The notes beneath the pieces were generated by a model. That model was not told where the DNA came from and did not search any database. It saw only the letters and a program-made list of their open reading frames with translations. DNA of 64,000 bases from positions 34,100,001 through 34,164,000 of the forward strand of contig NC_073395.1 in assembly GCF_028641065.1 (NCBI RefSeq). The letters are read 5' to 3'. Both the position numbers and the translations under genes were made by a program. This DNA is from Leucoraja erinacea (lineage: Eukaryota). Shown here piece by piece: positions 1,730 through 63,283 of the stretch. The stretch's first letter is position 1, and every line of letters starts with the position of its first letter.

Positions 1730-3142
1730 CTGATTTTTTTTTTCAAAAAGGGTATAATTTTAAAGTGTGAATACCTACTATCCCCAAAGCTTTATCAATA
1801 GAAATGGCATTCACCTTTGCCTTAACTATTATAAGTACTGGTTTTGATCTCTGGACTGTTTCAAAACAGTTGGCAAGAATGATCTATAAATAAATTGATC
1901 AACCCAGGTAGTTTAGAGCAACACCATAAAAATACATACCCAACTTTCAGAAATGATTACTAAAATGAGGTACACATTAGTTATGCATAACTATTCAAAG
2001 TGTTCTTTGTGGGTTTCAGATTGACCTGGTAAACAATTAATTGCAATAACAAGTTAAATTAAATATCAAGTTTTCTTAAAAGGTATAATAGTTTGAAAAA
2101 GTTAAATAGATTTACTGAAATGAAATCTAATACAGTGAAAATTGCAGACAGGTTACTACACAAACGGACACAAAGTGCTGGAGTAACTCAATGTAGGTAT
2201 GTTGTAAAACCTACCTGAATCGTCGTTGAAAATCTGCCCCAGCCCATGTGCGCGTTTTGGCGCTGTTTAGAGGGGGCGGGTTTAAAACGCGATTTTTACT
2301 AGGCTGTTCCAATCAAAGATGTTCAGCCTAGTAAATAATTAACGGCAAATCGCTGAAAGACCCCGTCGCAAAAGGTATTATTAGTTTTCTAGGCCTCGAA
2401 TAATAGTTATAATAGTTTTAAAATCACTCTCTCAACCCGCGACCTCTCGTAGCCCCAAGGTTTTATAAAGCAACCAATTAAAGGTATGTACCTTATTTTT
2501 ACATTAAAAGGGGCTTCTTAAGACCCCTTTATACAACGTTTACTATAGCGAGTAGTTCATTTTGGGCTCTTTATATCCCGCAGTATTTTTCTGGGCATTT
2601 GAGGGCACAAATCCAGCGCAATGTGAACGTTCTAAACCAGCGCGTTCACAGAAACCAATAGAAAGCTGATTTAAAATGGATTTTAATTTACAGCAATTGA
2701 ACACTAAATTCCTTCCATTTGGCCTATAAATTGATGTAAATAAGATTTAAAAATCATGTTTTATTGTGAATTATTTGTGAATATTATTTGGACACTTAGG
2801 CTATTTAAAAATGTTAATCATTTATTAAGAAATGGATAGATGTTTAGATCTAGTAATTGAAGTTTGAAATTAGCTACAATTGGGTAACTAACTAATTATA
2901 TGCTGGTTCAATCTATGATAATAGTAAGATTAAATGAGTACTTACCAGTACGAAGTTTGATCTGTATTTTATGAGGAGTTACGATGAGGGATTACGTGAA
3001 GAACCCACCCAGCGCGCAGGCGCGGCATACTTCCAAGCAGCGGTGTGGAATCACAGATAGACACAAGTTGAAGTAAAGATAGTAAAGACCAATGAGACAT
3101 CAGTCCGAGTTTGATCTATACAATGAGGGTGGGAGCGGAGGG

Positions 3143-3255
3143 CACGTAATCCCTCATCGTAACTCCTCATAAAATACAGATCAAACTTCGCACTGGTAAG
3201 TACTCGTTTAATCTTACTATTTTACTTCGGAGTCACGTGAGTGACTACGTGAAGA
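3143..3255. repeat. DIRS internal complementary region (ICR)
   Basis: 3143-3220 is the reverse complement of 2921-2998 (2 mismatches) and 3221-3255 is the reverse complement of 7683-7717, so the ICR is a copy of the circle junction. Confidence 0.95.
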
Positions 3256-3415
3256 CTTCAAAGGTCTGTGATTTCAAACCGTGTAACAGTTATATCACTC
3301 ACTGCCGAAAGATCATCGAGGAGGAAGTGGTATCTAAAGACCAACAAGTTTGTTTAGTTTTAAAAAACAAATGTTTATTAACTACAACAAAAAATAGCTC
3401 CCCTGGGCTTTTAAA

Positions 3416-4426
3416 TTATAACTTTGTGGTTTCTAAAATTCTTTCCGCAAAGACGTCCTTTCCCATCAGCGGTTTCCTGTAGAATTTTTGGAATGTCGAT
3501 TCCCTTGACCATCCCGCTGCTCTGAGGATGTGGTCTAGGGGAACCTGCATCCTATCTGCCGCTGAGGTGGACGCTGCCCTGGTTGAATGGGATTTAAAAA
3601 CATCTGTGTTAATCCCTGCCATGTTAAGGACCTGTTTCAACCATCTGGATATTGTCTGGCTGGTAACCCGTCCAAAAGGCTTTTTGTGGCTGACCCATAA
3701 GGCTTTTTCTCTCCCTCTAAGAGTTTGGGTAGTGTCTAAATAATGATGAAGGTGGGTCACCACACACAGCCTAGGTTCTGGAGGGTATGCCCGGAAGATC
3801 AACGGGGAGTTGGATGTACCTGGTCTGCTCTGTTTTACCAACCCCGGCATGGTGAAAGTAATGGTATCTGGGGTGGTCACCATGTGGTTCAGATTTAACT
3901 GATGCAGCGACTGAACCCTCTGAGCTGAGACAAGCGCCATGAGCATGAGGGTCTTATAAGTGGACTGTTCCAGGCTCAGGGATCCCACCGGAGGCCAACC
4001 TCGAAGGTGTGTCAATACTACACTCACATCCCACATATGGGTGTATCTAGGTGTAGGGGGTTTGGTGTTATAGATCCCTTTAAGGAGTTTGATAACCAGA
4101 GGGTGGGATCCCACACTATGCTGTCCTATGGGCATAAGGTATGCGGACAGGGCGCTCCGAGCTGTATTGATGGCACTGTAGCTCATCTTAAGGTCATGGT
4201 GCAGGTGGGCCAGGAACTCCAGCACATCCGAGATCGAAGCCGTCTTGTAGGATGTCCCTGCTTCCAGACAGTACTGTTCCCATTTCCTGATGTAGGTCAG
4301 GTACTGTTTTTTGGTGGAAACTCGCAGGGATGCCGACATGGTGGCGATTGTTCTCTCTGATAACCCCAATCCCCGGTAAGGTCTGTTCAGAATCTGGAAA
4401 CCAGGAGGTTCAATTTTTGGTGGCAT
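3416..4426 (-). CDS. DIRS tyrosine recombinase (SAM-like N-terminus plus catalytic domain)
   Basis: 336-aa ORF with catalytic pattern R (AQRVQ), K (VKQSR), HSTR, AGWS and FY; alternative start at GCCACCATG, 4339. Confidence 0.93.
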   Translation of the reverse strand: MPPKIEPPGFQILNRPYRGLGLSERTIATMSASLRVSTKKQYLTYIRKWEQYCLEAGTSYKTASISDVLEFLAHLHHDLKMSYSAINTARSALSAYLMPIGQHSVGSHPLVIKLLKGIYNTKPPTPRYTHMWDVSVVLTHLRGWPPVGSLSLEQSTYKTLMLMALVSAQRVQSLHQLNLNHMVTTPDTITFTMPGLVKQSRPGTSNSPLIFRAYPPEPRLCVVTHLHHYLDTTQTLRGREKALWVSHKKPFGRVTSQTISRWLKQVLNMAGINTDVFKSHSTRAASTSAADRMQVPLDHILRAAGWSRESTFQKFYRKPLMGKDVFAERILETTKL

Positions 4427-6321
4427 GGATGACTAATGCCAGTTACCGGGTGAGTCAATAATTGGGGGTGGTTATGAAGGACCATAGGTGTCTCTACCAC
4501 CATGTCGTGGAACATTGGGAACCATGGTTGGGTAGGCCAGTCGGGCACGACCAGAATGCCAGAGGCTGAGTCTGCCTGAATTTTCTGGAGTACCCGACTG
4601 ATGAGGCAGAAGGGAGGGAAAGCATAGAAAAAGAAATTTCCCCAATCCAGCGTGAAGGCATCTACCGCTGCTGCCTCTGGGTCTGGTTCCCAAGCCACAT
4701 ACATGGGTAGTTGGTGATTTAATCTAGACGCAAACAAATCTATATCTGGCGTACCATATTGCTTGACAATTCTAGCAAATAGTTTTGGGTCCAACATCCA
4801 TTCGATGTTGTCATTGAATTTTCGTGACCTGGTGTCCGCCACTAAATTTAGCTTGCCTGGTAAATAGGCAGCTGATAGCCAAATATGTCTCTCGACACAC
4901 CATTGCCAGATTATAGTAGTTAATTTGTCGCATGATACTGATTTTATGCCACCCATGTGCTGGATATAAGATACCGCCGTAGTGTTGTCAATCATAATCC
5001 TAACATGCACATGCCGCATATCAGATGTATATGCTTTTAGCCCATAAAAGGCGGCGAGCATTTCCAAGAAGTTAATGCCCAGTGATTGTAGTAGCGATGC
5101 CTCTGAGTTAGTCCATCTGCCACCTGTGCTGTCTATGGAGTTAGTAGCTCCCCAGCCTAAAGCACTGGCATCCGTTGTAATGGTTATGTTAGGATTGGTG
5201 ATGGCGATAGGACTGTAACTGTGCCAAATATTATCGACCCACCACTGAAGTTCTGATTTGGCTTCAGTGGGTAACTCCATTTTGCGGTCATAATGCCCTC
5301 TATTAAGACGTAGTGCATGAGTCCTTGCCCTTTGCAAATTTTGATAATGCAAGGGCCCATGTTGGGCAGCCGGGAATGCTGCTACTATAGAGCCAATAAC
5401 TCTGGCTACGTGCCGTATCCTTGGTTGCGGTGTAGCAATTAAATTGTTACAAGCTTCGATGAGTGAAACTTTTTTGTTTCTAGGCAGAGTGACAGTCATA
5501 TGGATAGTGTCAATAGTGAAGCCTAGGTAATCCATGTTAGTAGTAGGCTCCAATATTGATTTATCTGGGTGTAGGATGAATCCCAAAGTTTCAAGGAGTT
5601 GTTTAGTGGCTAAAACTCCTGCGACAGCTAGTTCCCTTGTTCTCCCTAATATGAGAACATCGTCCAGATAGGCCACGACTAAATGTTTTTGTTCTCTCAA
5701 TTTTTTCATGGCCACTTTGAGAATTTTTGTAAATAATCTGGGAGCTGTCGTTAAACCATTGGGCAAGGCTCTGTACTGCCACAGTTGGCCCATCCAGATA
5801 AATTTCAGATATTTGTAATAATCCTTATGAATGGGTACTAAATAGTAAGCATCCTTGATATCTATGCTTGCCATGTAGTATCCCTTGGAGATCAGTTGTC
5901 TGGCAGTGACAAATGTCTCCATTTTGAAATGTTGATACTCAACAGACTGATTGAGTGACGTCAAATCAATAATAATGCGACACCCACCATCTTTCTTGGA
6001 TTTAAGAAAAATATTTGATACAAATTCGTGCGGCTCGTGTGTGGTCATTTCTATGATGCCTTTAGCCACGAGCCTATCTAGTTCAGCTTGTCCTTCTACC
6101 TTCTCAAAAGCTGAGGGAAGGAATACCCTTTGGGGCATGTGCTGAACTGGAGGTTCTAAGCCTGGTTTGAATTCAATTTTGTATCCACTGATACTGTTGA
6201 GTATAAACTTATTGTTAGTTAAGGAGCACCAAACATGCTTGAAGAACCTCAAACGTCCTCCTGTTAATACAGCACCCGTTGTCTGTGTATGTTGGCAGGA
6301 ACCAGACCCACCTACCTCCAT
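4387..6321 (-). CDS. DIRS Pol: reverse transcriptase, RNase H and phage-type adenine methyltransferase-like domain
   Basis: 644-aa ORF: IDIKDAYY, LPNGL, YLDD; RNase H TDAS/LE/DN/AD; C-terminal DLFAS...YAFPPF. Confidence 0.95.
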   Translation of the reverse strand: MEVGGSGSCQHTQTTGAVLTGGRLRFFKHVWCSLTNNKFILNSISGYKIEFKPGLEPPVQHMPQRVFLPSAFEKVEGQAELDRLVAKGIIEMTTHEPHEFVSNIFLKSKKDGGCRIIIDLTSLNQSVEYQHFKMETFVTARQLISKGYYMASIDIKDAYYLVPIHKDYYKYLKFIWMGQLWQYRALPNGLTTAPRLFTKILKVAMKKLREQKHLVVAYLDDVLILGRTRELAVAGVLATKQLLETLGFILHPDKSILEPTTNMDYLGFTIDTIHMTVTLPRNKKVSLIEACNNLIATPQPRIRHVARVIGSIVAAFPAAQHGPLHYQNLQRARTHALRLNRGHYDRKMELPTEAKSELQWWVDNIWHSYSPIAITNPNITITTDASALGWGATNSIDSTGGRWTNSEASLLQSLGINFLEMLAAFYGLKAYTSDMRHVHVRIMIDNTTAVSYIQHMGGIKSVSCDKLTTIIWQWCVERHIWLSAAYLPGKLNLVADTRSRKFNDNIEWMLDPKLFARIVKQYGTPDIDLFASRLNHQLPMYVAWEPDPEAAAVDAFTLDWGNFFFYAFPPFCLISRVLQKIQADSASGILVVPDWPTQPWFPMFHDMVVETPMVLHNHPQLLTHPVTGISHPCHQKLNLLVSRF

Positions 6322-6323
6322 GT

Positions 6324-7541
6324 TTATTTGTGGGGCCGTTTTCGGTAGGTTTGGCCCAAGGTTGTCCGTGTTGGTGCTGCGGTGGGGCGGCGCAGCTTCC
6401 CACGGCTCCGCCCTGGGCCCCGCTCTAAAAAAGAGCTCTGGGGGTAGTGGGAGGCGGTCACCAGGCTTTCACCAGCTCGGTACCTGCTGGTGGATGCCGA
6501 GGCGTGCTGCCAACTGGGTGTCTTCACCCTGCTCGGTCCCGGCCCTGCCCTCATGAGGCCTACTGGTTTGGCCGCCTCTTCCAACTCCTTCAGTTTTTTG
6601 GCTAAATCTGCACCAAATAGCAGCGCCTCTCGTTCGGGCGCTGGAGCTTTGCAGAGGCCTGCATATGTCGGGTTGAGGGTAGGCCTAATGTTGTCCCGCC
6701 GTAGGCTATTGAGCTCATAAGTGGTGCTGCACATCAGTGCGAGTGCATCCTGCTGGGGTATGGTTAGGTCTTCGTTCCCCACGGACCGAGCAAAGGCGGT
6801 GATGGCTGCTGAGTGGAGTTTCAGGACCCGCTGCATCTTTACTTCCTGAGCCCTGATCTGCTGCCCCAGCTGGTTCCATATCTGCCCGTTGACCGTTTTG
6901 ACCCGCAGCGCCTCGCAATTCTCTGGCGCTGTGTACGTGTCAAGGGCCTGCTGGACGACCTTGTCCTGCAGCGGCTTGTTGGACAGCCTGTTAATGCTGG
7001 CCGCCATTCTGGGTGGCAATACCATCCCAGTCGTTGGGGGCGCTGCGTACCGGCCCACTACACCCAGTAGCTCTTCTTCTAGCACGCCCGGCATACTGAT
7101 GTTATCCTCCGCCTGCCCTTGGGATAGGCCAGCCCAGTCCTGGCCTCCCTTACTGCCCTCGAACATAGAGGGTACAGAAGGGTGTGGTGAGGAGGAGGCC
7201 AAAGCCCGTCCTCCTGGGAGATGCCTAGCCTGCATCTCCTCATCGATCATTTGCTCTAGGAGCTGCCTCATGCAGCTGATGCGAGCGTCTCCCCGTTTCG
7301 GTGGTGGAGAGCGTTCCCGTTCCTCCGATGAATCGGAGGACACCGGCCGGTCGGTTTTGTGAGTAGCCTTCCTCCCTGTGCGGGGCGTCGATATCTGCAG
7401 CACAGGGGGCGGCTCGGTGTCGGGTGAGCGGGAGCGTTGAAATGGCTCCTCCGCTACGAGTGGCTGCCGCCCAGCTATGGACCCCTCCTCGGGTGGAGTT
7501 GGGCAGGCAGTCCTTCTGGCTGGTCGCTTTCGAGAGGCCAT
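6324..7541 (-). CDS. DIRS Gag-like ORF1
   Basis: First ATG (MASRKRP) at 7541; PENC...VN..IW and RRDNIRP...LFG motifs typical of animal DIRS ORF1; lies upstream of Pol. Confidence 0.85.
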   Translation of the reverse strand: MASRKRPARRTACPTPPEEGSIAGRQPLVAEEPFQRSRSPDTEPPPVLQISTPRTGRKATHKTDRPVSSDSSEERERSPPPKRGDARISCMRQLLEQMIDEEMQARHLPGGRALASSSPHPSVPSMFEGSKGGQDWAGLSQGQAEDNISMPGVLEEELLGVVGRYAAPPTTGMVLPPRMAASINRLSNKPLQDKVVQQALDTYTAPENCEALRVKTVNGQIWNQLGQQIRAQEVKMQRVLKLHSAAITAFARSVGNEDLTIPQQDALALMCSTTYELNSLRRDNIRPTLNPTYAGLCKAPAPEREALLFGADLAKKLKELEEAAKPVGLMRAGPGPSRVKTPSWQHASASTSRYRAGESLVTASHYPQSSFLERGPGRSRGKLRRPTAAPTRTTLGQTYRKRPHK

Positions 7542-8420
7542 AATTCTCCCTTGAGCGACTCTGTAACACAAAACAGGCACTTACCTGAGGTCTTGTCTTT
7601 ATGCTGCAGCTGGAGAGCCTGGCTCCAGCTGCTGCCGCTGTTGCACTGCTGACGTAATGCCGCGCCTGCGCGCTGGGTGGGTTCTTCACGTAGTCACTCA
7701 CGTGACTCCGAAGTAAAACTGAAAATTTCATTCAGTTCTCTTAATTTTTAAGAAGGCCTTTTGACTGTCCACGATCACAGCTTTTTTGTTATGTCCATAG
7801 AAAATCAATAGGGAACAAGATGCTAATTTCCGAGTATGAAAATGGCCATAACCTTTTTATTACTTGAGATATGAAAGTGAATTAGGTGTCAAATTAAACT
7901 TCTTTTTATGCTTTATATGATGGGATAAATTGCAGACTTGATTTTTTAAATCTCAAAATTTTGTAACATTGCTACTCAATGGGTCAGGCAGCATCTCTGG
8001 AGAAAATGAGTTGGACCCTTCACACCGAGTCAGTTTGCCGAGTTACTCCAGCACCCCGTGTTGTTTCACCTTAAATCTTGATGCTGCTGGTCTGCACCAG
8101 TGAGCGTTTCTTCACTGGTTCATGCGGCTTATGTTTCAGCCCCTGGAGACAATTTGTGGCAATTCTGTTGCAATAATTAGCAGTCCCACTTTCAAATAAT
8201 GTATACTGTAGCTTAGTGTTAGGAGAAGCAATACTGCTGCATGCAAGAATTGGTTGGACATCAGTTCTCCCTGCTATCCATTAAACTGCTTTGGAGCATG
8301 CCTGGTGCTACAAACATTAAAATAATTCCTCTCACCCTTAAAAGAAATGGAAGCTAATGACTACGTCAGAACATTTATATCAACTAATATATTCTCACAA
8401 TAATTGTAATCATCAATTAT

Positions 8421-24190: not shown

Positions 24191-27100
24191 TCTTTTATAT
24201 CTATAAAACTCTGGGGCTATCCGTACGACTGCCGTCCTGATCCCTTTCTGCCTTTTGATTCGTGCCCGATACTCGCAGATGTCCAATCGGAATGGCCGAT
24301 GCTCGCAGATGTCCAATCGGAATGGATCAATTTGGATGTACGGCTGCCGGCTGCATTTCTTCCTTTGATTCATTGCCACGCCCAATCCAGACGCTCAATC
24401 TCCGAGATCTTTTCCATTTCGGTAGAAATTTCGCTTTTCTTTCTAAGTATCGCTCCTCATTACATTTCGTCGTGTTGAAGTACACGTTTTTAATCAAATC
24501 CTTCTCCACCCCACCCCCCACCCCCAAGTATTTCAAAAATAGAAACATAGAAACATAGAAATTAGGTGCAGGAGTAGGCCATTCGGCCCTTCGAGCCTGC
24601 ACCGCCATTCAATATGATCATGGCTGATCATCCAACTCAGTATCCCGTACCTGCCTTCTCTCCATACCCCCTGATCCCCTTAGCCACAAGGGCCACATCT
24701 AACTCCCTCTTAAATATAGCCAATGAACTGGCCTCAACTACCCTCTGTGGCAGAGAGTTCCAGAGATTCACCACTCTCTGCGTGAAAAAAGTTCTTCTCA
24801 TCTCGGTTTTAAAGGATTTCCCCTTTATCCTTAAGCTGTGACCCTTTGTCCTGGACTTCCCTAACATCGGGAACAATCTTCCTGCATCTAGCCTGTCCAA
24901 CCCCTTAAGAATTTTGTAAGTTTCTATAAGATCCCCTCTCAATCTCCTAAATTCTAGAGAGTATAAACCAAGTCTATCCAGTCTTTCTTCATAAGACAGT
25001 CCTGACATCCCAGGAATCAGTCTGGTGAACCTTCTCTGCACTCCCTCTATGGCAATAATGTCCTTCCTCAGATTTGGAGACCAAAACTGCACGCAATACT
25101 CCAGGTGTGGTCTCACCAAGACCCTGTACAACTGCAGTAGAACCTCCCTGCTCCTGTACTCAAATCCTCTTGCTATGAAAGCCAACATACCATTTGCTTT
25201 CTTTACTGCCTGCTGCACCTGCATGCCTACCTTCAATGACTGGTGTACCATGACACCCAGGTCTCACTGTATCTCCCCCTTTCCCAATCGGCCACCATTT
25301 AGATAATGATCTGCTTTCCCGTTTTTGCCACCAAAATGGATAACCTCACATTTATCCACATTATACTGCATCTGCCAAACATTTGCCCACTCACCCAGCC
25401 TATCCAAGTCACCTTGCAGTCTCCTAGCATCCTCCTCACACCTAACACTGCCCCCCAGCTTAGTGTCATCCGCAAACTTGGAGATATTGCCTTCAATTCC
25501 CTCATCCAGATCATTAATATATATTGTAAATAGCTGGGGTCCCAGTACTGAGCCTTGCGGTACCCCACTAGTCACTGCCTGCCATTGTGAAAAGGACCCG
25601 TTTACTCCTACTCTTTGCTTCCTGTTTGCCAGCCAGTTCTCTATCCACATTAATACTGAACCCCCAATGCCATGTGCTTTAAGTTTGTATACTAATCTCT
25701 TATGTGGGACCTTGTCGAAAGCCTTCTGGAAGTCCAGATACACCACATCCACTGGTTCTCCCCTATCCACGCTACTAGTTACATCCTCGAAAAATTCTAT
25801 AAGATTCGTCAGACATGATTTACCTTTCGTAAATCCATGCTGACTTTGTCCAATGATTTCACCACTTTCCAAATGTGCTGCTATCCCATCTTTAATAACT
25901 GACTCTAGCAGTTTCCCCACTACTGATGTTAGACTAACTGGTCTGTAATTCCCCATTTTCTCTCTCCCTCCCTTCTTAAAAAGTGGGGTTACGTTTGCTA
26001 CCCGCCAATCTTCAGGAACTACTCCAGAATCTAAAGAGTTTTGAAAGATTATTACTAATGCATCCACTATTTCTGGAGCTACTTCCTTAAGTACTCTGGG
26101 ATGCAGCCTATCTGGCCCTGGGGATTTATCGGCCTTTAATCCATTCAATTTACCCAACACCACTTCCCGGCTAACCTGGATTTCACTCAATTCCTCCAAC
26201 TCCTTTGACCCGTGGTCCCCTGCTATTTCCGGCAATTTATTTATGTCTTCCTTAGTGAAGACGGAACCAAAGTAGTTATTCAATTGGTCCGCCATATCCT
26301 TGTTCCCCATGATCAACTCACCTGTTTCTGACTGCAAGGGACCTACATTTGTTTTAACTAATCTCTTTCTTTTCACATATCTATAAAAACTTTTGCAGTC
26401 AGTTTTTATGTTCCCTGCCAGTTTTCTTTCATAATCTATTTTTCCTTTCCTAATTAAGCCCTTTGTCCTCCTCTGCTGGTCTTTGAATTTCTCCCAGTCC
26501 TCCGGTATGCTGCTTTTTCTGGCTAATTTGTACGCATCATCCTTCGCTTTGATACTATCCCTGATTTCCCTTGTTATCCGTGGATGTACTACCTTCCCTG
26601 ATTTATTCTTTTGCCAAACTGGGATGAACAATTTTTGTAGTTCATCCATGCAGTCTTTAAATGTCTTCCATTGCATATCCACCGTCAACCCTTTTAGAAT
26701 TAATTGCCAGTCAATCTTGGCCAATTCACGTCTCATACCCTCAAAGTTACCTTTCTTTAAGTTCAGAACCATTGTTTCTGAATTAACAATGTCACTCTCC
26801 ATCCTAATGAAGAACTCAACCAAATTATGGTCACTCTTGCCCAAGGGGGCACGTACAACAAGACTGCTAACTAACCCTTCCTCATTACTCAATAACCCTT
26901 CCTCATTACTCAATAACCCTTCCTCATTACTCAATAACCCTTCCTCATTATTCAATAAATAAACTGGCTTCTCCATTTACATGTCAGCTTCCAACACACT
27001 TCGAAACAAAGTTGCAAGACAGGAACACTCTGAACTTTTCACTGCTGCAGCAGGCAGGGGTGGTGCCATTTGATTGTTTTTTAATCCACTGCTGAGGGAG

Positions 27101-40567: not shown

Positions 40568-42443
40568 AGGTGGCGCCGCACAATGGCAGCACGCCAACAG
40601 TCTGTCTGTCTTTTCATCTTTTTTGTTTTTTTTTTTGTGTGTTTTAAAAGTTTATGTTAATGTTCTCTTGTTTATTTTATATGTGGGGTGGGCGGGGGGT
40701 GGGGTCAGGGGAAACTTTTTTTAATCTCTTACCTTGCCGGAGATGCGATTATTTTCCGGATTGTATCTCCGGTGTCTCTGTGGCCCAACTCATGGAGCTG
40801 CTGCTAGGGACTAACTTTGAGCCCCACCACGGGTCCTTGGACTTATCATCGGAGCCAATCCCTTGCCTGCAGATTTCACCATCGAGGAGCTGGCAGTCTC
40901 GGGTAGAGACCGATGTCGGGAAGCTCCAAAGGACGCAGAAGGTTCGACCAGCCCCGACCCAGGGTCAGATCGCCTGGCGCGGGGAGCTGAGATTTCCTCC
41001 CCCCCTCGATGCGGGAGCTTGATCACCCTGACGTGGAGGGCCCGAGCGCCGGCTACGGCAGCCAAGATGGTCCCGTCAACATTAGGCTGGAGGCCCCCGA
41101 CAGGAGAACAAAGGGAAGAGATTGAACTTTTTGTTTCACCTTCCAGCACAGTGAGGAATGTGGTGAAGCCACTGTGGTGGATGTTCATGTTAAAATGTAT
41201 TTTGTGTGTCGTGTTGCTTTTTATTGGTACGACTGTATGGCAAATCAAATTCCTCGTATGTTGCAAAACGTACTTGGCTAATAGACAATAGACAATAGGT
41301 GCAGGAGTAGGCCATTTGGCCCTTCGAGCTAGCACCGCCATTCAATGTGATCATGGCTGATCATCCTCAATCAGTACCCCGTTCCTGCTTTTTCCCCATA
41401 TCCCCTGCCTCCACTATCTTTAAGAGCCCTATCCAGCTCTCTCTTGAAAGCATTCAGAGAACCTGCCTCCACCACCCTTTGAGGCAGAGAATTCCACACA
41501 CTCACAACTCTCTGTGAGAAAAAGTGTTTCCTCGGCTCCGTTCTAAATGGCTTACCCCTTATTCTTAAAATGTGGCCCCTGGTTCTGGACTCCCCCAACA
41601 TCAGGAACATGTTTCCTGCCTCCAGCATGTCCAAACCCTTAACAAACTTATATGTTTCAATAAGATCCCTTCTCATCCTTCTAAACTCCAGAGTGTACAA
41701 GCCCAGCTGCTCCATTCTCTCAGCATATGACAGTCCCGCCATCCCAGGAATTAACCTTGTAAACCTACGCTGCACTCCCTCAATAGTAAGAATGTCCTTC
41801 CTCAAATTAGGGGACCAAAACTGCACACAATACTCCAGGTGTGGTCTCACTAGGGCTCTGTACAACTGCAGAAGGACCTCTTTGCTCCAATACTCGACTT
41901 CACTGCCTGCTGTACCTGCATGCTTACTTTCATAAGCTGATGAACAAGGACCCCCAGATCCCGCTGTACTTCCCCCTTTCCCAACTCGATGCCATTTAGA
42001 TAGCCTTCCTGTTTTTGCTACCAAAGTGGAAAACTTCACATTTCTCCACATTAAACGTCATCTGCCATGCATCTGCCCACTCCCCCAACCTGTCCAAGCC
42101 ACCCTGCATTCTCATAGCATCCTCCTCACAGTTCACACTGCCACCCAGCTTTGTATCATCTGCAAATTTGCTAATGTTACTTTGAATCCCTTCATCCAAA
42201 TCATTGAAATATATTGTATATTGCACCAAGCCTTGCGGTGCCCCACTAGTCACTGCCTGTCATTCTGAAAGGGACCCATTAATCCCCACTCTCTGTTTCC
42301 TGTCTGCCAACCAATTTTCTATCCATATCAGCACTCTTCCCCCAATACCATGTGCCCTAATTTTGCCCACTAATCTCCTATGTGGAACCTTATCAAGTGC
42401 AATTAATATGCAAATAAAAATTTGATTATGATTATTATGATTA
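40568..42443 (+). mobile_element. GC-rich non-autonomous retroposon (copy B), tail interrupted by a CR1
   Basis: Homologous to 8421-8936; body ends ...ttggctaata at about 41283 and the tail aataaaaatttgattatgattattatg resumes at about 42413. Confidence 0.7.
41281..42397 (-). mobile_element. CR1 LINE 3' fragment (second subfamily, (ATTGTCT)n tail)
   Basis: Peptides ALVRPHLEYCVQFWSP and KFADDTKLGG; frameshifted. Confidence 0.88.
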
Positions 42444-46309: not shown

Positions 46310-46419
46310 TAAATATAACATTTCTTTATCATTTCCTAAGAATCAACCGTCTGTTTATTATATATTTTAATAATTCCTCTCAAGAGGCAATTCCTAAGCC
46401 ATGTTTCATAATCTGTTCC

Positions 46420-48018
46420 ATACGATGGACACGATGTCAGACGGGTGCTCCTGGCAGTGAACCCCAAGAAGGCTACCGGCCCAGATGGAGTCCCTGGTAA
46501 GGTGCTCAAAGCGTGCGCCCACCAGCTCACTGCCATCTTCACCAGAATTTTCAATCTCTCCCTGGCCCAGGCAGTTATTCCGTCCTGCCTAAAATCAGCC
46601 ACAATCGTCCCTGTGCCGAAGAAGTCTCCCATCACCAGCCTTAATGACTACCGTCCTGTTGCCCTCACTCCGGTAATCACGAAGTGCTTCGAGAGATTGG
46701 TCCTCCAGCACATCAAGGACTATCTACCACCAGACTTCGACCCCCACCAATTCGCTTATCGCCAAAACAGATCTACAGAAGACGCCATCACCGTAGCTCT
46801 CCACTCTGTGCTGAGCCATCTGGAGCAGGGGCAGAGCTACGTCCGGATGCTCTTTGTGGATTTTAGTTCAGCCTTTAACACAATCATCCCGGACATCCTC
46901 ATTGGTAAACTGGTCACTCTCGGCCTCCCCACTGTCACATGTGCCTGGATTAAGGATTTCCTCACAACCCGGCCCCAGACTGTGAGACTTGGCCCCCACC
47001 TCTCCTCCACTCGCAGGTTGAGTACCGGTTCCCCACAGGGCTGTGTGCTAAGCCCCCTCTTATACTGTCTCTACACCTACGACTGTAGTCCGGCCCACAA
47101 CAACAACCGCATCGTCAAATTTGCTGACGACACTACTGTGGTCGGACTTATTTCAAAGGGAGACGAGGCAGCCTACAGAGAGGAAGTCCTGAAGTTGACA
47201 ACCTGGTGCTCAGAAAACAATCTGGCTCTGAACACCAGGAAAACAAAAGAGCTCATTGTCGACTTCAGGAGGCACAGCACCGACTTAGTCCCCCTACACA
47301 TTAACGGCGAGTGTGTGGAGAGGGTCAACACCTTCCGGTTTCTCGGCGTCCATATCGCGGCTGACATCTCCTGGACGGACAACACGACAGCGGTCATCAA
47401 GAAGGCTCAGCAGCGGCTGCACTTCCTGAGGGTCCTCAGGAAGCACAACCTGGACTCTAACCTGCTGCTGACCTTCTACCGCTCGTCCATCGAGAGCCTG
47501 CTGACATACTGCATTACAGCATGGTATGGCAGCTGCACCATGGCAGACAGGGAGAGGCTTCAGAGGGTAACCAGGACAGCGCAGAGGATCATTGGTTGCC
47601 CTCTCCCCTCCCTGATGGACATCTACACCTCCCGCTGCCTTAGCAGGGCAAAGAAGATCACCAAAGACAGCTCCCATCCTGCGTTTGGACTGTTCGACCT
47701 GCTGCCCTCTGGAAGGCGCTATAGGTGCATCAAATCCAGGACAAACAGACTCAGGAATAGCTGCTTCCCGAGAATTATATCTACCATAAATTCAAATCCA
47801 CACATGCACTGACTACACCGCCCAACAGGACTTCCATCTGTATATATGTATGTAGCGCCGTAGAATTTGTGCACCTATTCCCCCCCCCCCATCTCCCTTC
47901 TGTTTTGTTTTTCTGTTTCTTGTTTTTTGTGTAAAATTGTATGTATGCACTGAGTACGAGCAGCTTTCAGTTTCACTGTACATGTATAGTGACAATAAAT
48001 GGCATATCTATATCTATA
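46420..48018 (+). mobile_element. Young 5'-truncated Rex1/Babar LINE with an uninterrupted RT ORF (46445-47812)
   Basis: 455 aa with [38 protein letters not shown]; tail tttcactgtacatgtatagtgacaataaa plus (TATATC)n. Confidence 0.9.
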
Positions 48019-57646: not shown

Positions 57647-60600
57647 AATTGGTGACCCCGACCTGTCTAGCCGTCGTCAGACAACAGAATTATGCAGGAA
57701 GAGAATATTCCCGCAGAATCGGCCAGCACGAGGCAGGGCGTACCCGCCTTCAAACTGCCAGCCTTTTGGCCTGATCAACCTCAGGTGTGGTTCGCCCATG
57801 TGGAGACACGGTTTCATCTACATCGTATCAACCACGACGACACTATGTATTTTCATGTGGTAGGAGCATTGCCACAGTTGCCCTTTATCAGAGACCCTCC
57901 TTCCAGCGGCAAGTACGAAGGGTTGAAAGCCCTGTTATTTCACACCTATGGTCTTTCCCCATAGAGACAGGGCGGCAAGGCTGCTGCATATGGACTGCAT
58001 CGTCGACCGAAGGCCATCGACGATCACGGCAAAGATGTTGGCCCTAATGGACGGGCACCGCCCCTGCTTGCTTTTCGAACAGGCGTTCTTGGAGCAGATG
58101 CCCGACGAAGTGCAGCTAATGCTAGCGGGAGCCGATTTCAGCAACCCTCAGCAGCTCGCAGAAAGAGCCGATGAGTTGTGGGCGCTCAAGACGGCGGGAA
58201 GTACACGCCGTCGCCCGCCTCATGGGCACGCAACGGGTGCAGCCGAACTGACGTCGGGAAGAAGAGGAGACGCAGCCTAGCGTTGAAGACGAATCGCCGC
58301 GGCCAGCGGTCTTCGTCCAACGCAGATGGTGCTACTACCAACATCCAGTACCAACAGGAGCAGAAGCCCGAAGATGTCGGAGCCGTTGTTCATTTCCGTG
58401 AAACGCCCAGGCCGATAAAGGCGAACGCGATCGGCCCCAACGTACTCTTTGTCCGTGATCGCCATTCCGGCCACCGTTTCCTGGTGGACTCCAGTGCCCA
58501 TGCCAGTATCCTGCCTCCAAGTGCCAGGGACGTTCGTGCTGGTAAGGTGGGACCTGTCTTCTCGGCGGTTAACGGGAGCGATATTCGCACCTACGGCACG
58601 CAAAACTAAATTTCGAATCCCACCATACAGGTGGAAGTTTATCATCCCACCGCCGGTCCGCCGGTACACGCCCGTGCGCGCCGTCTCCTGCCCGAAAAAC
58701 TGCGCATCGCACGAGACGATTTCCAACTTATGGAGGACATGGGAATTGTCCAGCGGTCAGATAGCCCTTGGACTTCCTCGTTACACATGGTGCCCAAAGC
58801 GTCCGGAGAGTGGAGACATTGCAGCAATTACAGGCGCTTAAACGCAGTAACTACAGCCGACATGTATCCAGTCCCGAACATCCAGGATTTCTCGGCCCAC
58901 CTGGAAGGTGCGACCATCTTCTCGAAGGTTGACTTTATCCGCGGATATAATCAAATCCCGGTCCACCCCGACGATGTCCCTAAAACGGCCACCGTTACCC
59001 CTTTCGGCCTCTTCAAGTGGCTCAGAATGCCTTTTGGCTTGAAGAACGCGGCCCAGGCGTTCCAGAGGCTAATGGATCAGGTCGGCCGGGGTTTGCCGTT
59101 TATATTCATCTACCTAGACGACATCCTAGTGGCCAGCCGCTCGCAGGCAGAGCATACCAAGCACCTCCGCTTACTTTTCGAACGGCTGCACAAGCACGGG
59201 TTGGTCATCAACCCCGAGAAGTGCTAGTTCGGTCTGCGCTCCATCTCGTTCTTAAGGCATTGCATCATCTCTCAGGTAGCGCAACCACTGCCCGAGAAAG
59301 TCGACGCTATCCATCATATCCCCAGGCCATTATCGATCAAGGGTCTGCAGGAGTTTATCGGGATGGTTAACCTTTATCACCGATTCGTCCCGTCTGCAGC
59401 CGCCATCATGCGGCCAATGTTCCGATGCCTGGCCAGTAAGTTCAAGGACCTGGTCTGGTCTGAGGAAGCACAGAAGGCGTTCGAGGGTGCTAAGACCGCA
59501 TTGGCCAACGCCACTATGCTGGTACACCCTAGGGCTTCAGCCCAAATGGCCCTCACCGTGGACGCGTCCAACGTCGCGGTAAGTGCCGTCCTCGAGCAGC
59601 GGACAGGTAACCGCTGGGTGCCGTTGGCATTTTTCAACAGGCAACTGCGAGCCCCTGAAGTCAAATACAGCGCTTTCGACAGGGAGCTCCTTGCGCTTTA
59701 CCTAGCTATCCGTCATTTTCGATATTTCTTGGAGGGGCGCGCTTTCACTGCTTTCACCGACCACAAGCTGTTAATTTTCGCCTTGTCCAAGGTTTCTGAC
59801 CCTTGGGCTGCCCAACAGCAATGGCACCTCGCCTACATTTCCCAATTCACATCTGATATTCGGCATGTGGCAGGTAAGCTGAATGTGGTGGCCGACGCAT
59901 TGTCCCGTCCTGCGCTACCCGAAGTTTCTGCGCTTAGTCTTAGCGTTGATTACGAGGAGCTAGCAGTCGCCCAGCGGGCAGACGCCGGTATGGAGATTTA
60001 TCGCAATGCTGAATCAGGACTGGCTGGTTAAGGTGCCATTCAGCTACTCCGGCGTGCAAGTCCTTTGTGATATTTCCACCGGTAAAGCCTGTCCGATTGT
60101 CCCGGTCACTTGGCGTCGTCGGATCTTCGACACCATCCACAGCCTAGCGCACCCGTCCATTCGCGCCACTTCTGCTTTGGTCGCTGCAAAGTTCGTTTGG
60201 CACGGGTTAAGGAAGCAAGTCGCTGCATGGGCCCGTTCCTGCATCCCATGTCAGACCTCCAAAGTGCAGAGACATGCACCCGCCGGTCCAGGATTTCGCC
60301 ATACCGGATGGCAGGTTCCTGCACATCCATGTAGACCTGGTGGGTCCCTTGCCGTGTTCGCGCGGGGCGACCCACTTACTGACTATCGTAGACAGGTTTA
60401 CGAGGTGGGCGGATGCAATCCCGTTGGAGGATACCTCCGCCGAAGCTTGCGCGAGGGCCATGGTAGCCCATTGGATCGCCCGTTTTGGGGTCCCCTCGCA
60501 TATTACCACCGGTAGGGGGGCCCAGTTCACGTCTTCATTATGGTGTGGTACGGCGCAGCTGTACGGAGCGAAGCTGCGCCAGACTACCGCTTATCACCCG

Positions 60601-61353
60601 GAGTCTAACGCGTTGGTCGAGCGGTTCCACCGGCACCTTAAGTCGCAGTTAAAAGCCAGACTCACTGGTCCTGATTGGGTCGACCAGTTACCTTGGGTCC
60701 TCCTTGGCTTCGGAACAACGCCTAAGGAGAACCTCAAAGCCTCCTCGGCCGAGTTGGTTTATGGCTCGGTTTTACAGGTTCCAGGGAATTTCTTGCCCGT
60801 TCCTCCGGTCCAGGAGGTCTCAACCTCACAGCTGTTGTCGGACATTCGCAAGCGGGCGCACGCTCTGGTCCTGGTTCCCACTTCCCGGCATGTCTTCGGC
60901 GCATGTGCCTACTATGTTATGGGATTGTGCTTATGTTTTTCTCCGTAGAGACGCTCATCGCTCACCATTACAGCGGGTGTACGAGGGTCCGTACAGGGTG
61001 CTCAGTACTGGTGTCTCGACGCTCACGTTGGACATGGGTGGAAAGGAGGAGTTCGTCTCCGTGAACTGCCTTAAGCCTGCACATGTTGACGAGGATTGCC
61101 CAGTAACTGTGGCCACTCCATGGCGTAGAGGACGTCCACCTGCTGTTTTGCCGCCCTCTGCACTTGTTTCCTACGGTCGTGTTTCTTCGGTTCCCTTTGT
61201 TACGCCCGTCCCTCATTCACGTTTTTCGTCTCCCTCCGGTCCTGTTGTACCGGTCCCAAATGTTACGCTGGCCCCTGGACCTCGGACTACGCGTTCCGGT
61301 CGTACCATCCGTTTACCCACGCGTTTCCGTACCGCGGATTCTGGGGGGGCCCA

Positions 61354-61580
61354 TGTAGCGGTGCATTCTAGCAAACGGAGATGTCAAACCCGGCGTTCAG
61401 AAGCCGCGGTCATGTGACTCGGGAGGGGCTGTTGGTTTTGCGCATTTTTTCCCCTGCGTGCGTTAGTTCAGCGCTGACCACCGATGTGGCCAGACGTGTC
61501 TGTTAAACCTGTATGCTGCAACTTAAGCTTTTGAATAAAGTATTGGTTGAAAACTCCAGGAGTCGTTTATCAGACCACCA
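61354..61580 (+). repeat. Gypsy 3' LTR
   Basis: Direct repeat of 57420-57646, preceded by GGGGGGGCCCA. Confidence 0.92.
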
Positions 61581-62029: not shown

Positions 62030-63283
62030 TATAATTTTTTGAGGATGTAACTAGTAGAGTGGATAAGGGAGAACCAGTGGATGGGTTATATCTGGACTTC
62101 CAGAAGGCTTTCGATAAGGTCCCACATAAGAGATTAGTATACAAACTTAAAGCACACGGTATTGGGGATTCAGTATTGATGTGGATAGAGAACTGGCTCG
62201 CAGACAGGAAGCAAAGAGTAGGAGTAAACGGGTCCTTTTCACAATGGCAGGCAGTGACTAGTGAGGTGCCGCAAGGCTCAGTGCTGGGACCCCAGCTATT
62301 TACAATATATATTAATGATTTGGACGAGAGAATTGAATGCAACATCTCCAAGTTTGCGGATGACACGAAGCTGGGGGGCAGTGTTAGCTGTGAGAAGGAT
62401 GCTAGGAGGCTGCAAGGTGACTTGGATAGGCTGGGTGAGTGGGCAAATGCATGGCAGATGCAGTATAATGTGGATAAATGTGAGGTTAGCCACTTTGGTG
62501 GCAAAAACAGGAAAGTAGACTATTATCTGAATGGTGGCCGATTAGGAAAAGGGGAGATGCAACGAGGCCTGTGTGTCATGGTACACCAGTCATTGAAAGT
62601 AGGCATGCAGGTGCAGCAGGCAGTAAAGAAAGCGAATGGTATGTTCGCATTCATAGCAAAAGGATTTGAGTATAAGAGCAGGGAGGTTCTACTGCAGTTG
62701 TACAGGGTCTTGGTGAGACCACACCTGGAGTATTGCGTACAGTTTTGGTCTCCTAATCTGAGGAAAGACATTCTTGCCGTAGAGGGAGTACAGAGAAGGT
62801 TCACCAGACTGATTCCTGGGATGGCAGGACTTTCATATGAAGAAAGACTGGATAGACTCGGCTTGTACTCACTAGAATTTAGAAGATTGAGGGGTGATCT
62901 TATAGAAACTCACAAAATTCTTAAGGGGTTGGACAGGCTAGATGCACGAAGATTGTTCCCGATGTTGGGGAAGTCCAGAACAAGGGGTCACAGTTTAAGG
63001 ATAAGGGGGAAATCTTTTAGGACCGAGATGAGAAAAACATTTTTCACACAGAGAGTGGTGAATCTCTGGAATTCTCTGCCACAGAAGGTAGTTGAGGCCA
63101 GTTCATTGGCTATATTTAAGAGAGAGTTAGATGTGGCCCTTGTGGCTAAAGGGATCAGGGGGTATGGAGAGAAGGCAGGTACAGGATACTGAGTTGGATG
63201 ATCAGCCATGATCATATTGAATGGCGGTGCAGGCTCGAAGGGCCGAATGGCCTACTCCTGCACCTATTTTCTATGTTTCTATG
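62030..63283 (+). mobile_element. Young 5'-truncated CR1 LINE with open RT C-terminal ORF (62059-63192)
   Basis: 377-aa ORF nearly identical to the 24539-26956 copy; tttctatgtttctatg tail. Confidence 0.93.

Follow-up and report, generated by a model that had tools for sequence, protein, structure and literature searches.

Within a 64,000-nucleotide stretch of Leucoraja erinacea DNA (NCBI RefSeq assembly GCF_028641065.1, contig NC_073395.1, positions 34,100,001 to 34,164,000; hereafter the window, whose numbering is used throughout), a DIRS1-like retrotransposon carries overlapping gag and pol reading frames on the minus strand. The heptamer U UUU UUA at 6432-6426, inside this overlap, is very probably a conserved slippery site that drives programmed −1 frameshifting to yield a Gag-Pol protein, as judged by sequence comparison with relatives. 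The heptamer sits in the gag frame and the −1 frame around it is open. Its form and frame recur across families in which one slippery heptamer has been exchanged for another, and Pol frequently lacks a start codon. The parts of the element that bear on the site are as follows.

6324..7541, minus strand: gag open reading frame (ORF1), 405 aa, from ATG at 7541 to the stop TAA at 6326-6324
4387..6468, minus strand: pol frame, 693 aa, comprising a linker, reverse transcriptase (RT; PF00078, E 4.6e-19), RNase H and a Dam-like methyltransferase, the latter two as weak matches
6469..6471, minus strand: upstream stop codon TGA of the pol (−1) frame, 36 nt ahead of the heptamer
6426..6432, minus strand: U UUU UUA, slippery heptamer read in the gag frame and predicted −1 frameshift site (from sequence and conservation)
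6319..6321, minus strand: pol-frame ATG, 2 nt after the gag stop; missing in 18 of 34 families

An earlier note on this DNA had placed the heptamer in the gag frame at these coordinates, with Pol in the −1 frame, a TGA shortly upstream and an open frame from there to ATG 6321, and the sequence bears out each of these points. The gag-frame codons around the site read CAG AGC TCT TTT TTA GAG, with T TTT TTA at 6432-6426. The pol ORF (6468-4387), which is −1 relative to gag, reads …ELFFRAG… here and stays open from after TGA 6471-6469 to ATG 6321 and onward through RT. Words of the form XXXYYYZ number 15 in the element, so the heptamer by itself is not rare; 6432-6426 is the sole strict gag-frame heptamer within the gag/pol overlap. 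In the proposed mechanism, most ribosomes would halt at TAA 6326 and release Gag, and a minority would slip by −1 at the heptamer, passing through a linker of 30-80 residues into RT, RNase H and methyltransferase.

Conservation of the slippery site

Relatives of the element were gathered from its own genome, metagenomes, IMG/VR (1 locus) and contigs of metagenome-assembled genomes (MAGs; 8 loci). We examined 167 loci and kept the 142 in which the gag core and the RT start were both present, dropping 25 for want of either. At 80% Pol identity, the 142 loci formed 42 families, most of them 37-49% identical to the window Pol. Family counts are based on the 34 families that had a representative with pol in −1 and an intact overlap; the other eight were left out owing to an early gag stop (L084, L103, L139, L130), a +1 arrangement (L106, L166) or gag and pol in one frame (L127, L137), and seven of these eight, L137 being the exception, still showed a T or A run at the heptamer position. 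The own-genome set consisted of 73 distinct copies in three families, whose Pol identities were 100, 75 and 57%. A quick tree was built from the loci, with no named reference elements included. LAP2alpha-type vertebrate DIRS elements lie outside the sample; a search for them in the own genome gave 0 matches, and the control for that search likewise matched nowhere. Among the loci, L158 and L159-L161 are DIRS elements from an IMG/VR contig and from MAGs assigned to bacteria (Anaerolineae, Sedimenticola), where they probably represent contamination from host animals.

Of the 34 families, 33 had a gag-frame heptamer of strict X XXY YYZ form within the overlap (12 and 4 in the other two frames; dinucleotide shuffles would give 9.5). 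For the narrow class U6N/A6C/GGGAAAC/UUUAAAC, 33 families were observed against 2.5 expected. The sites were U UUU UUA (U6A) in 22 families, U UUU UUG (U6G) in four, U UUU UUU (U7) in one, A AAA AAC (A6C) in five and G GGA AAC in one; the 34th family, outside the strict count, has G UUA AAC. On the quick tree, A6C required 4 changes, at least two of them forced by starred branches. Letters and encoded residues thus vary while the slippery form and its frame persist, as a functional shift site would be expected to behave. A_AAA_AAC and G_GGA_AAC rank among the shiftiest mammalian heptamers (PMC5009743; for this and the sources cited below, statements refer to the parts covered). In the own genome, 67 of the 73 distinct copies retained the heptamer, both frames and the open overlap. 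The earlier note had stated that lack of conservation of the heptamer or its frame in relatives would refute its proposal that the element may make a Gag-Pol fusion by −1 frameshifting; with that comparison run, the conserved heptamer, frame and open overlap support the proposal. We describe the signal as a predicted, deeply conserved −1 frameshift signal of DIRS1-like elements, and it is not vertebrate-specific. Two features of the survey temper its numbers: the formal P values for family conservation are inflated by relatedness of the families, and the overlap is set by the open pol frame, so that openness in 34 of 34 families arises partly by construction.

With 15 such words in the element, and with indels near the site in some copies, the heptamer might instead be a chance motif, a by-product of protein constraint (Phe-Leu in Gag, Phe-Phe in Pol) or the result of polymerase slippage on the T run. 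We regard this as scarcely credible. The switches to A AAA AAC and G GGA AAC alter the amino acids and keep X XXY YYZ, and wherever Phe and Leu are encoded, the synonymous codons used are the slippery ones; the family survey largely refutes this reading. As to slippage, runs of six are short for RNA polymerase slippage, and no indel at 6426-6432 was seen in the 12 raw-read rows displayed, of 21.

No ATG occurs between heptamer and RT in 18 of the 34 families, and Pol therefore cannot start by itself there. Of 120 Pol homologues, eight have Gag joined to them in frame; they fall into two or three distinct groups and show that fused Gag-Pol arises naturally among these elements. The gag ORF1 of the window aligns to the Gag portion of these fusions. 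In three own-genome loci (L074, L186, L192), indels have put gag and pol in a single frame, by a short deletion right after the heptamer in L074, and L192 has an altered heptamer.

The window family does have an ATG, and its Pol (and, after splicing, its recombinase) could arise through termination-reinitiation or through internal initiation at this codon, ATG 6321, leaving the heptamer as an inherited relic or a minor route. With TAA-AC-ATG spacing, A at position −3 and G at position +4, the ATG of this family lies in a favourable context just 2 nt past the gag stop, a point against frameshifting; the ATG is retained in two of the three own-genome families, and these families have no conserved strong stimulator. 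Yet the third own-genome family (L167) has no such ATG, the pol frame remains open in the stretch that precedes the codon, where subfamilies differ by indels in multiples of three, and the heptamer and its frame persist in the great majority of copies, as counted above. We consider this route improbable as the explanation of Pol synthesis; reinitiation at ATG 6321 may contribute in the window family alongside the predicted frameshift.

Sequence downstream of the heptamer

Two structures of this copy were considered as stimulators of the shift.

6353..6419, minus strand: candidate stimulator of this copy, a 9-bp stem of GGCCCAGGG (6419-6411) and CCUUGGGCC (6361-6353), 6 nt after the heptamer; z 4.9
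6376..6413, minus strand: two pseudoknot-like stems proposed earlier, of which the second is peculiar to this copy

The GC-rich complementary pairs that the earlier note had put forward as a stimulator do exist here, as GGGCGG (6413-6408) with CCGCCC (6390-6385) and GCTGCG (6396-6391) with CGCAGC (6381-6376), but they are not conserved. Among the 73 distinct own-genome copies, the first stem is intact in 25 and the second in one. Position 6395 is C here and A in all 29 other closest copies, and the second stem is therefore broken in other close copies. When the proposed stems were checked over seven subfamily sequences, 68% of cells were paired, with no covariation, and 365 of 500 shuffles scored as high; the check thus went against the suggested structure. 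An H-type pseudoknot formed by the two stems was rejected on the rarity of the second stem, the lack of covariation and the lack of any pseudoknot excess, pseudoknots not being enriched across families (mean z 0.12). An RNAalifold consensus of the seven subfamily sequences, with one compensatory pair in 10, was unconvincing. The 9-bp stem differs in its 3' arm in sister subfamilies and is only partly kept there.

Across families, a hairpin starting 3-11 nt past the heptamer was enriched (mean z 0.95-1.04, p ~1e-4), more strongly after A- and G-type sites, and six control offsets gave mean z −0.13 to 0.47. Enriched on average and present in this copy, the hairpin had no covariation support. A GGN codon directly follows U-run sites in 18 of 27 cases vs. 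6.5% in the background; the window itself has GAG. In HIV-1, the GGG intercodon supports frameshifting (PMC4373837). The stimulator is probably a simple, lineage-variable hairpin 3-11 nt downstream, aided by the GGN codon, and probably not a conserved pseudoknot. Some of the folding results pull the other way: two upstream control offsets in the hairpin test also reached p ~0.03, the mean z of the minimum free energy over families was only −0.42 (p 0.12) and many U6A sites are followed by A-rich, weakly folded sequence.

A predicted splice to the recombinase

A conserved predicted splice donor just downstream of the heptamer, which the earlier note did not contain, was found together with a predicted acceptor in phase at the recombinase frame.

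6310..6318, minus strand: predicted 5' splice donor GAG/GTAGGT, cut 6316/6315, pol phase 0, 11 nt past the first base of the gag stop
4393..4409, minus strand: predicted 3' splice acceptor ACCTCCTGGTTTCCAG (also written CCTGGTTTCCAG), followed by ATT after the cut at 4394/4393, recombinase phase 0; intron 1922 nt
3416..4432, minus strand: tyrosine recombinase ORF (PF00589, E 1.5e-7; PF13495)

GAG/GTA stands at the donor in 73 of 73 own-genome copies. Between heptamer and RT, a donor score of at least 8 occurred in 31 of 34 families vs. 3.7% of control windows, and for 33 of 34 families the best donor match had pol phase 0, vs. 83 of 269 controls; these are not 33 independent trials, because stop codons exclude phase 2 and descent keeps phase. 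In 32 of 34 families (exceptions L111 and L125) the donor lies 8-47 nt downstream of the gag stop. On the acceptor side, the recombinase frame opens just 39 nt upstream of the cut at 4394/4393, and a CAG acceptor in recombinase phase 0 was present in all eight families with recombinase data in the starred clade of the window. Three public gene models from two echinoderms (P0121, P0122, P0124) connect the recombinase with Gag or the FFR linker and leave out RT; in one of these models the connection falls right behind the KGE donor codons. Residues GE/V or Q/V occupy the donor position in natural in-frame gag-pol members (P0036, P0037, P0047, P0049, P0056, P0074, P0115 and L137), as judged by eye for the proteins and read as GAG/GTAAGC in the L137 DNA. 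Because in-frame gag-pol families still show the donor residues, the donor outlasts the frameshift.

Unspliced RNA would thus encode Gag-Pol, and RNA spliced from 6316/6315 to 4394/4393, with the Pol region removed, would give a Gag-linker-recombinase protein by the same slip. We think it rather likely that splicing out 6315-4394 serves the recombinase in this way. The spliced RNA would be spared nonsense-mediated decay because its junction lies <50 nt after the gag stop; the rule for such decay is 50-55 nt. Taken together, we lean slightly toward a general scheme in which animal DIRS1-like elements would make all three proteins from one Gag start: a single −1 slip would yield Gag-RT from unspliced and Gag-recombinase from spliced RNA, the donor would be held within <50 nt of the gag stop against nonsense-mediated decay, and many U6A-GGN sites would work with little or no RNA structure.

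Several results fall short of supporting the splice. Among the full set of 30 families with recombinase data, just 17 had their best acceptor in phase 0 and in 16 it matched the donor phase, by a crude scorer. The gene models are predictions and carry no independent proof. None of 120 near-length recombinase homologues carried Gag, and inspection of their N-termini by eye showed no spliced junction, the longer forms being gene models only. No joint 6316-4393 was seen in the raw reads of four RNA runs (X21-X24, 902-1554 reads each), at a depth of ~5-20 on both strands with reads mostly 90-99% alike. Four contig sets (X1, X2, X3, X5), of low coverage and with both strands and diverged copies, likewise contained neither this joint nor one at 6424, and none of the datasets listed as containing the element is on record as RNA. 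RNA evidence this thin carries little weight for or against splicing. At 4336-4481, three reads in one run jump 144 nt over the recombinase start, without GT-AG ends.

Splicing has also to be considered at the heptamer itself, where TTTTTTAG could be read as a 3' splice acceptor. A leader donor CAG/GTAAGT (7585/7584) would then join 6424, and the Pol mRNA would start at ATG 6321. The base after the site is G in 19 of 22 U6A cases, reading TTAG, a point against frameshifting, and the window has both a consensus donor upstream of the gag ATG and a Pol ATG. The AG is, however, missing after the run in 15 of 34 families (three U6A followed by U, four U6G, one U7 and seven A- or G-type), and in three of four U6G sites GGG also follows without an AG. 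An acceptor would need no fixed gag frame, yet 33 of 34 families hold the frame; another AG lies ≤14 nt upstream in 17 of the 19 TTAG sites, whose U run is exactly 6 in 19 of 19. A strong leader donor was found in one of 16 testable families (the window itself being outside those 16), 18 of 34 families have no downstream ATG, and no joint at 6424 was seen in the raw reads of the four runs, at low depth. We judge an acceptor at this position very unlikely and retain the heptamer as a predicted shift site. Around the leader donor, at 7585-7561 on the minus strand, the consensus CAG/GTAAGT is followed 24 nt on by a pyrimidine-rich acceptor, TACAG, which lies 20 nt ahead of the gag ATG; donor and acceptor are too close together for one intron. 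The donor could also join the acceptor of the recombinase, and about half of the families have an ATG at +54/+57 there.

The element and its relation to known systems

The remaining features define the element as a whole.

2920..7718, minus strand: near-intact DIRS1-like retrotransposon, ~4.8 kb, of a young high-copy family (from inverted repeats and copy counts; left end from a repeat match and loose read ends at 7718)
7657..7718, minus strand: left terminus (inverted terminal repeat), inverted relative to 2985-3028 and 3199-3255
2920..3028, minus strand: right terminus (inverted terminal repeat), from a repeat match
3143..3255, minus strand: internal complementary region (ICR, left and right parts, lICR and rICR), from a repeat match

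The right end lies at ~2920. The 40 copies scored, out of 1870 candidates, were 98-100% identical to the element, indicating a young, abundant family. RT and tyrosine recombinase ORFs stand behind a gag-like ORF1, and inverted terminal repeats and an internal complementary region are both present; because of the inverted termini and the ICR at 3255-3143, the element is DIRS1-like as defined in PMC3266345. A Pfam search with ORF1 gave 0 matches. RNase H and Dam were sub-threshold Pfam matches only in the window (Dam E 0.031; RT_RNaseH E 0.071), and Pol homologues carry PF05869 and PF17917. At the left terminus, >200 RNA reads per run match up to 7718 and then run into rICR-type sequence, which most simply reflects the ICRs of many copies and is no proof of circles.

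Exons of a PDZ-domain host gene (PF00595), which we take to be GRIP1-like, lie at 275-1202 on the same minus strand, and the element probably sits inside an intron of this gene. Elsewhere, the window contains ORFs that we presume, from their motifs, to be a broken gypsy-like pol and several RT ORFs of long interspersed nuclear element type (58610-61417, plus; 24637-26976, minus; 41371-42057, minus; 46412-47812, plus; 62035-63192, plus).

DIRS elements abound in fish, amphibians and marine invertebrates. For retroviruses and many animal long terminal repeat (LTR) elements, −1 gag-pol shifting is textbook knowledge, which limits the surprise of finding it here. We found no proposal of a gag-pol frameshift or of a recombinase splice for DIRS1-like elements in the covered parts of the literature searched (including PMC3266345, PMC6681497, PMC3783388, PMC9210276, PMC5633606, PMC7192593, PMC4157794, PMC4495291 and PMC13003380); that literature excludes the founding reviews (Poulter and Butler 2015; Goodwin and Poulter 2001), the 2003 LTR recoding survey, Repbase notes and supplements, any of which may mention the site. 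DIRS is not mentioned in the portion of PMC5009743 covered (the first 300,000 of 449,034 characters). The RT and recombinase ORFs of DIRS elements often have no start codon, and a conserved −1 signal would bear on how they are translated. It would extend retrovirus-style Gag-Pol recoding to the tyrosine-recombinase branch, and public Pol and recombinase annotations would carry the wrong N-terminus. The natural U6A, U6G and A6C sites, with varied or weak 3' structure, would also be a resource on what slippery sites require.

In its layout, the element matches published DIRS1-like elements (PMC3266345, PMC9210276), with the same gag, RT/RNase H/methyltransferase and recombinase ORFs, inverted termini, ICR, NTT-type ends and length of ~5 kb. 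Overlapping ORFs are described in the parts of these papers covered, and a mechanism for pol and recombinase expression is not. The Xenopus DIRS Gag carries LAP2alpha, whereas the window Gag has no Pfam match. The HIV-1 gag-pol signal (PMC4373837, PMC6547452) offers the closest likeness at the site, with an identical U UUU UUA, a −1 pol, GGG in HIV-1 corresponding to a GGN next codon in most relatives, and an FFR-type transframe peptide. Unlike HIV-1, the DIRS1-like relatives have no conserved stem-loop, some families have swapped the heptamer for A6C, U6G, GGGAAAC or GUUAAAC, and DIRS elements have no protease to cleave the fusion (PMC3783388). A −1 gag/pol arrangement occurs in 28 of 51 animal LTR retrotransposons surveyed (summarised in PMC5009743). 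With these elements and PEG10 the DIRS1-like elements share a −1 overlap with classical tandem shift sites and, in some relatives, in-frame gag-pol; in the LTR elements the DDE integrase lies inside Pol, whereas the recombinase of the present element has an ORF of its own further downstream, to which a splice probably gives access. Within the DIRS order, programmed frameshifting has been proposed for the Ngaro recombinase (Poulter and Butler 2015, as quoted in PMC13003380), but that proposal concerns the overlap between RT/RNase H and recombinase, and the signal predicted here lies in the gag-pol overlap of DIRS1-like elements.

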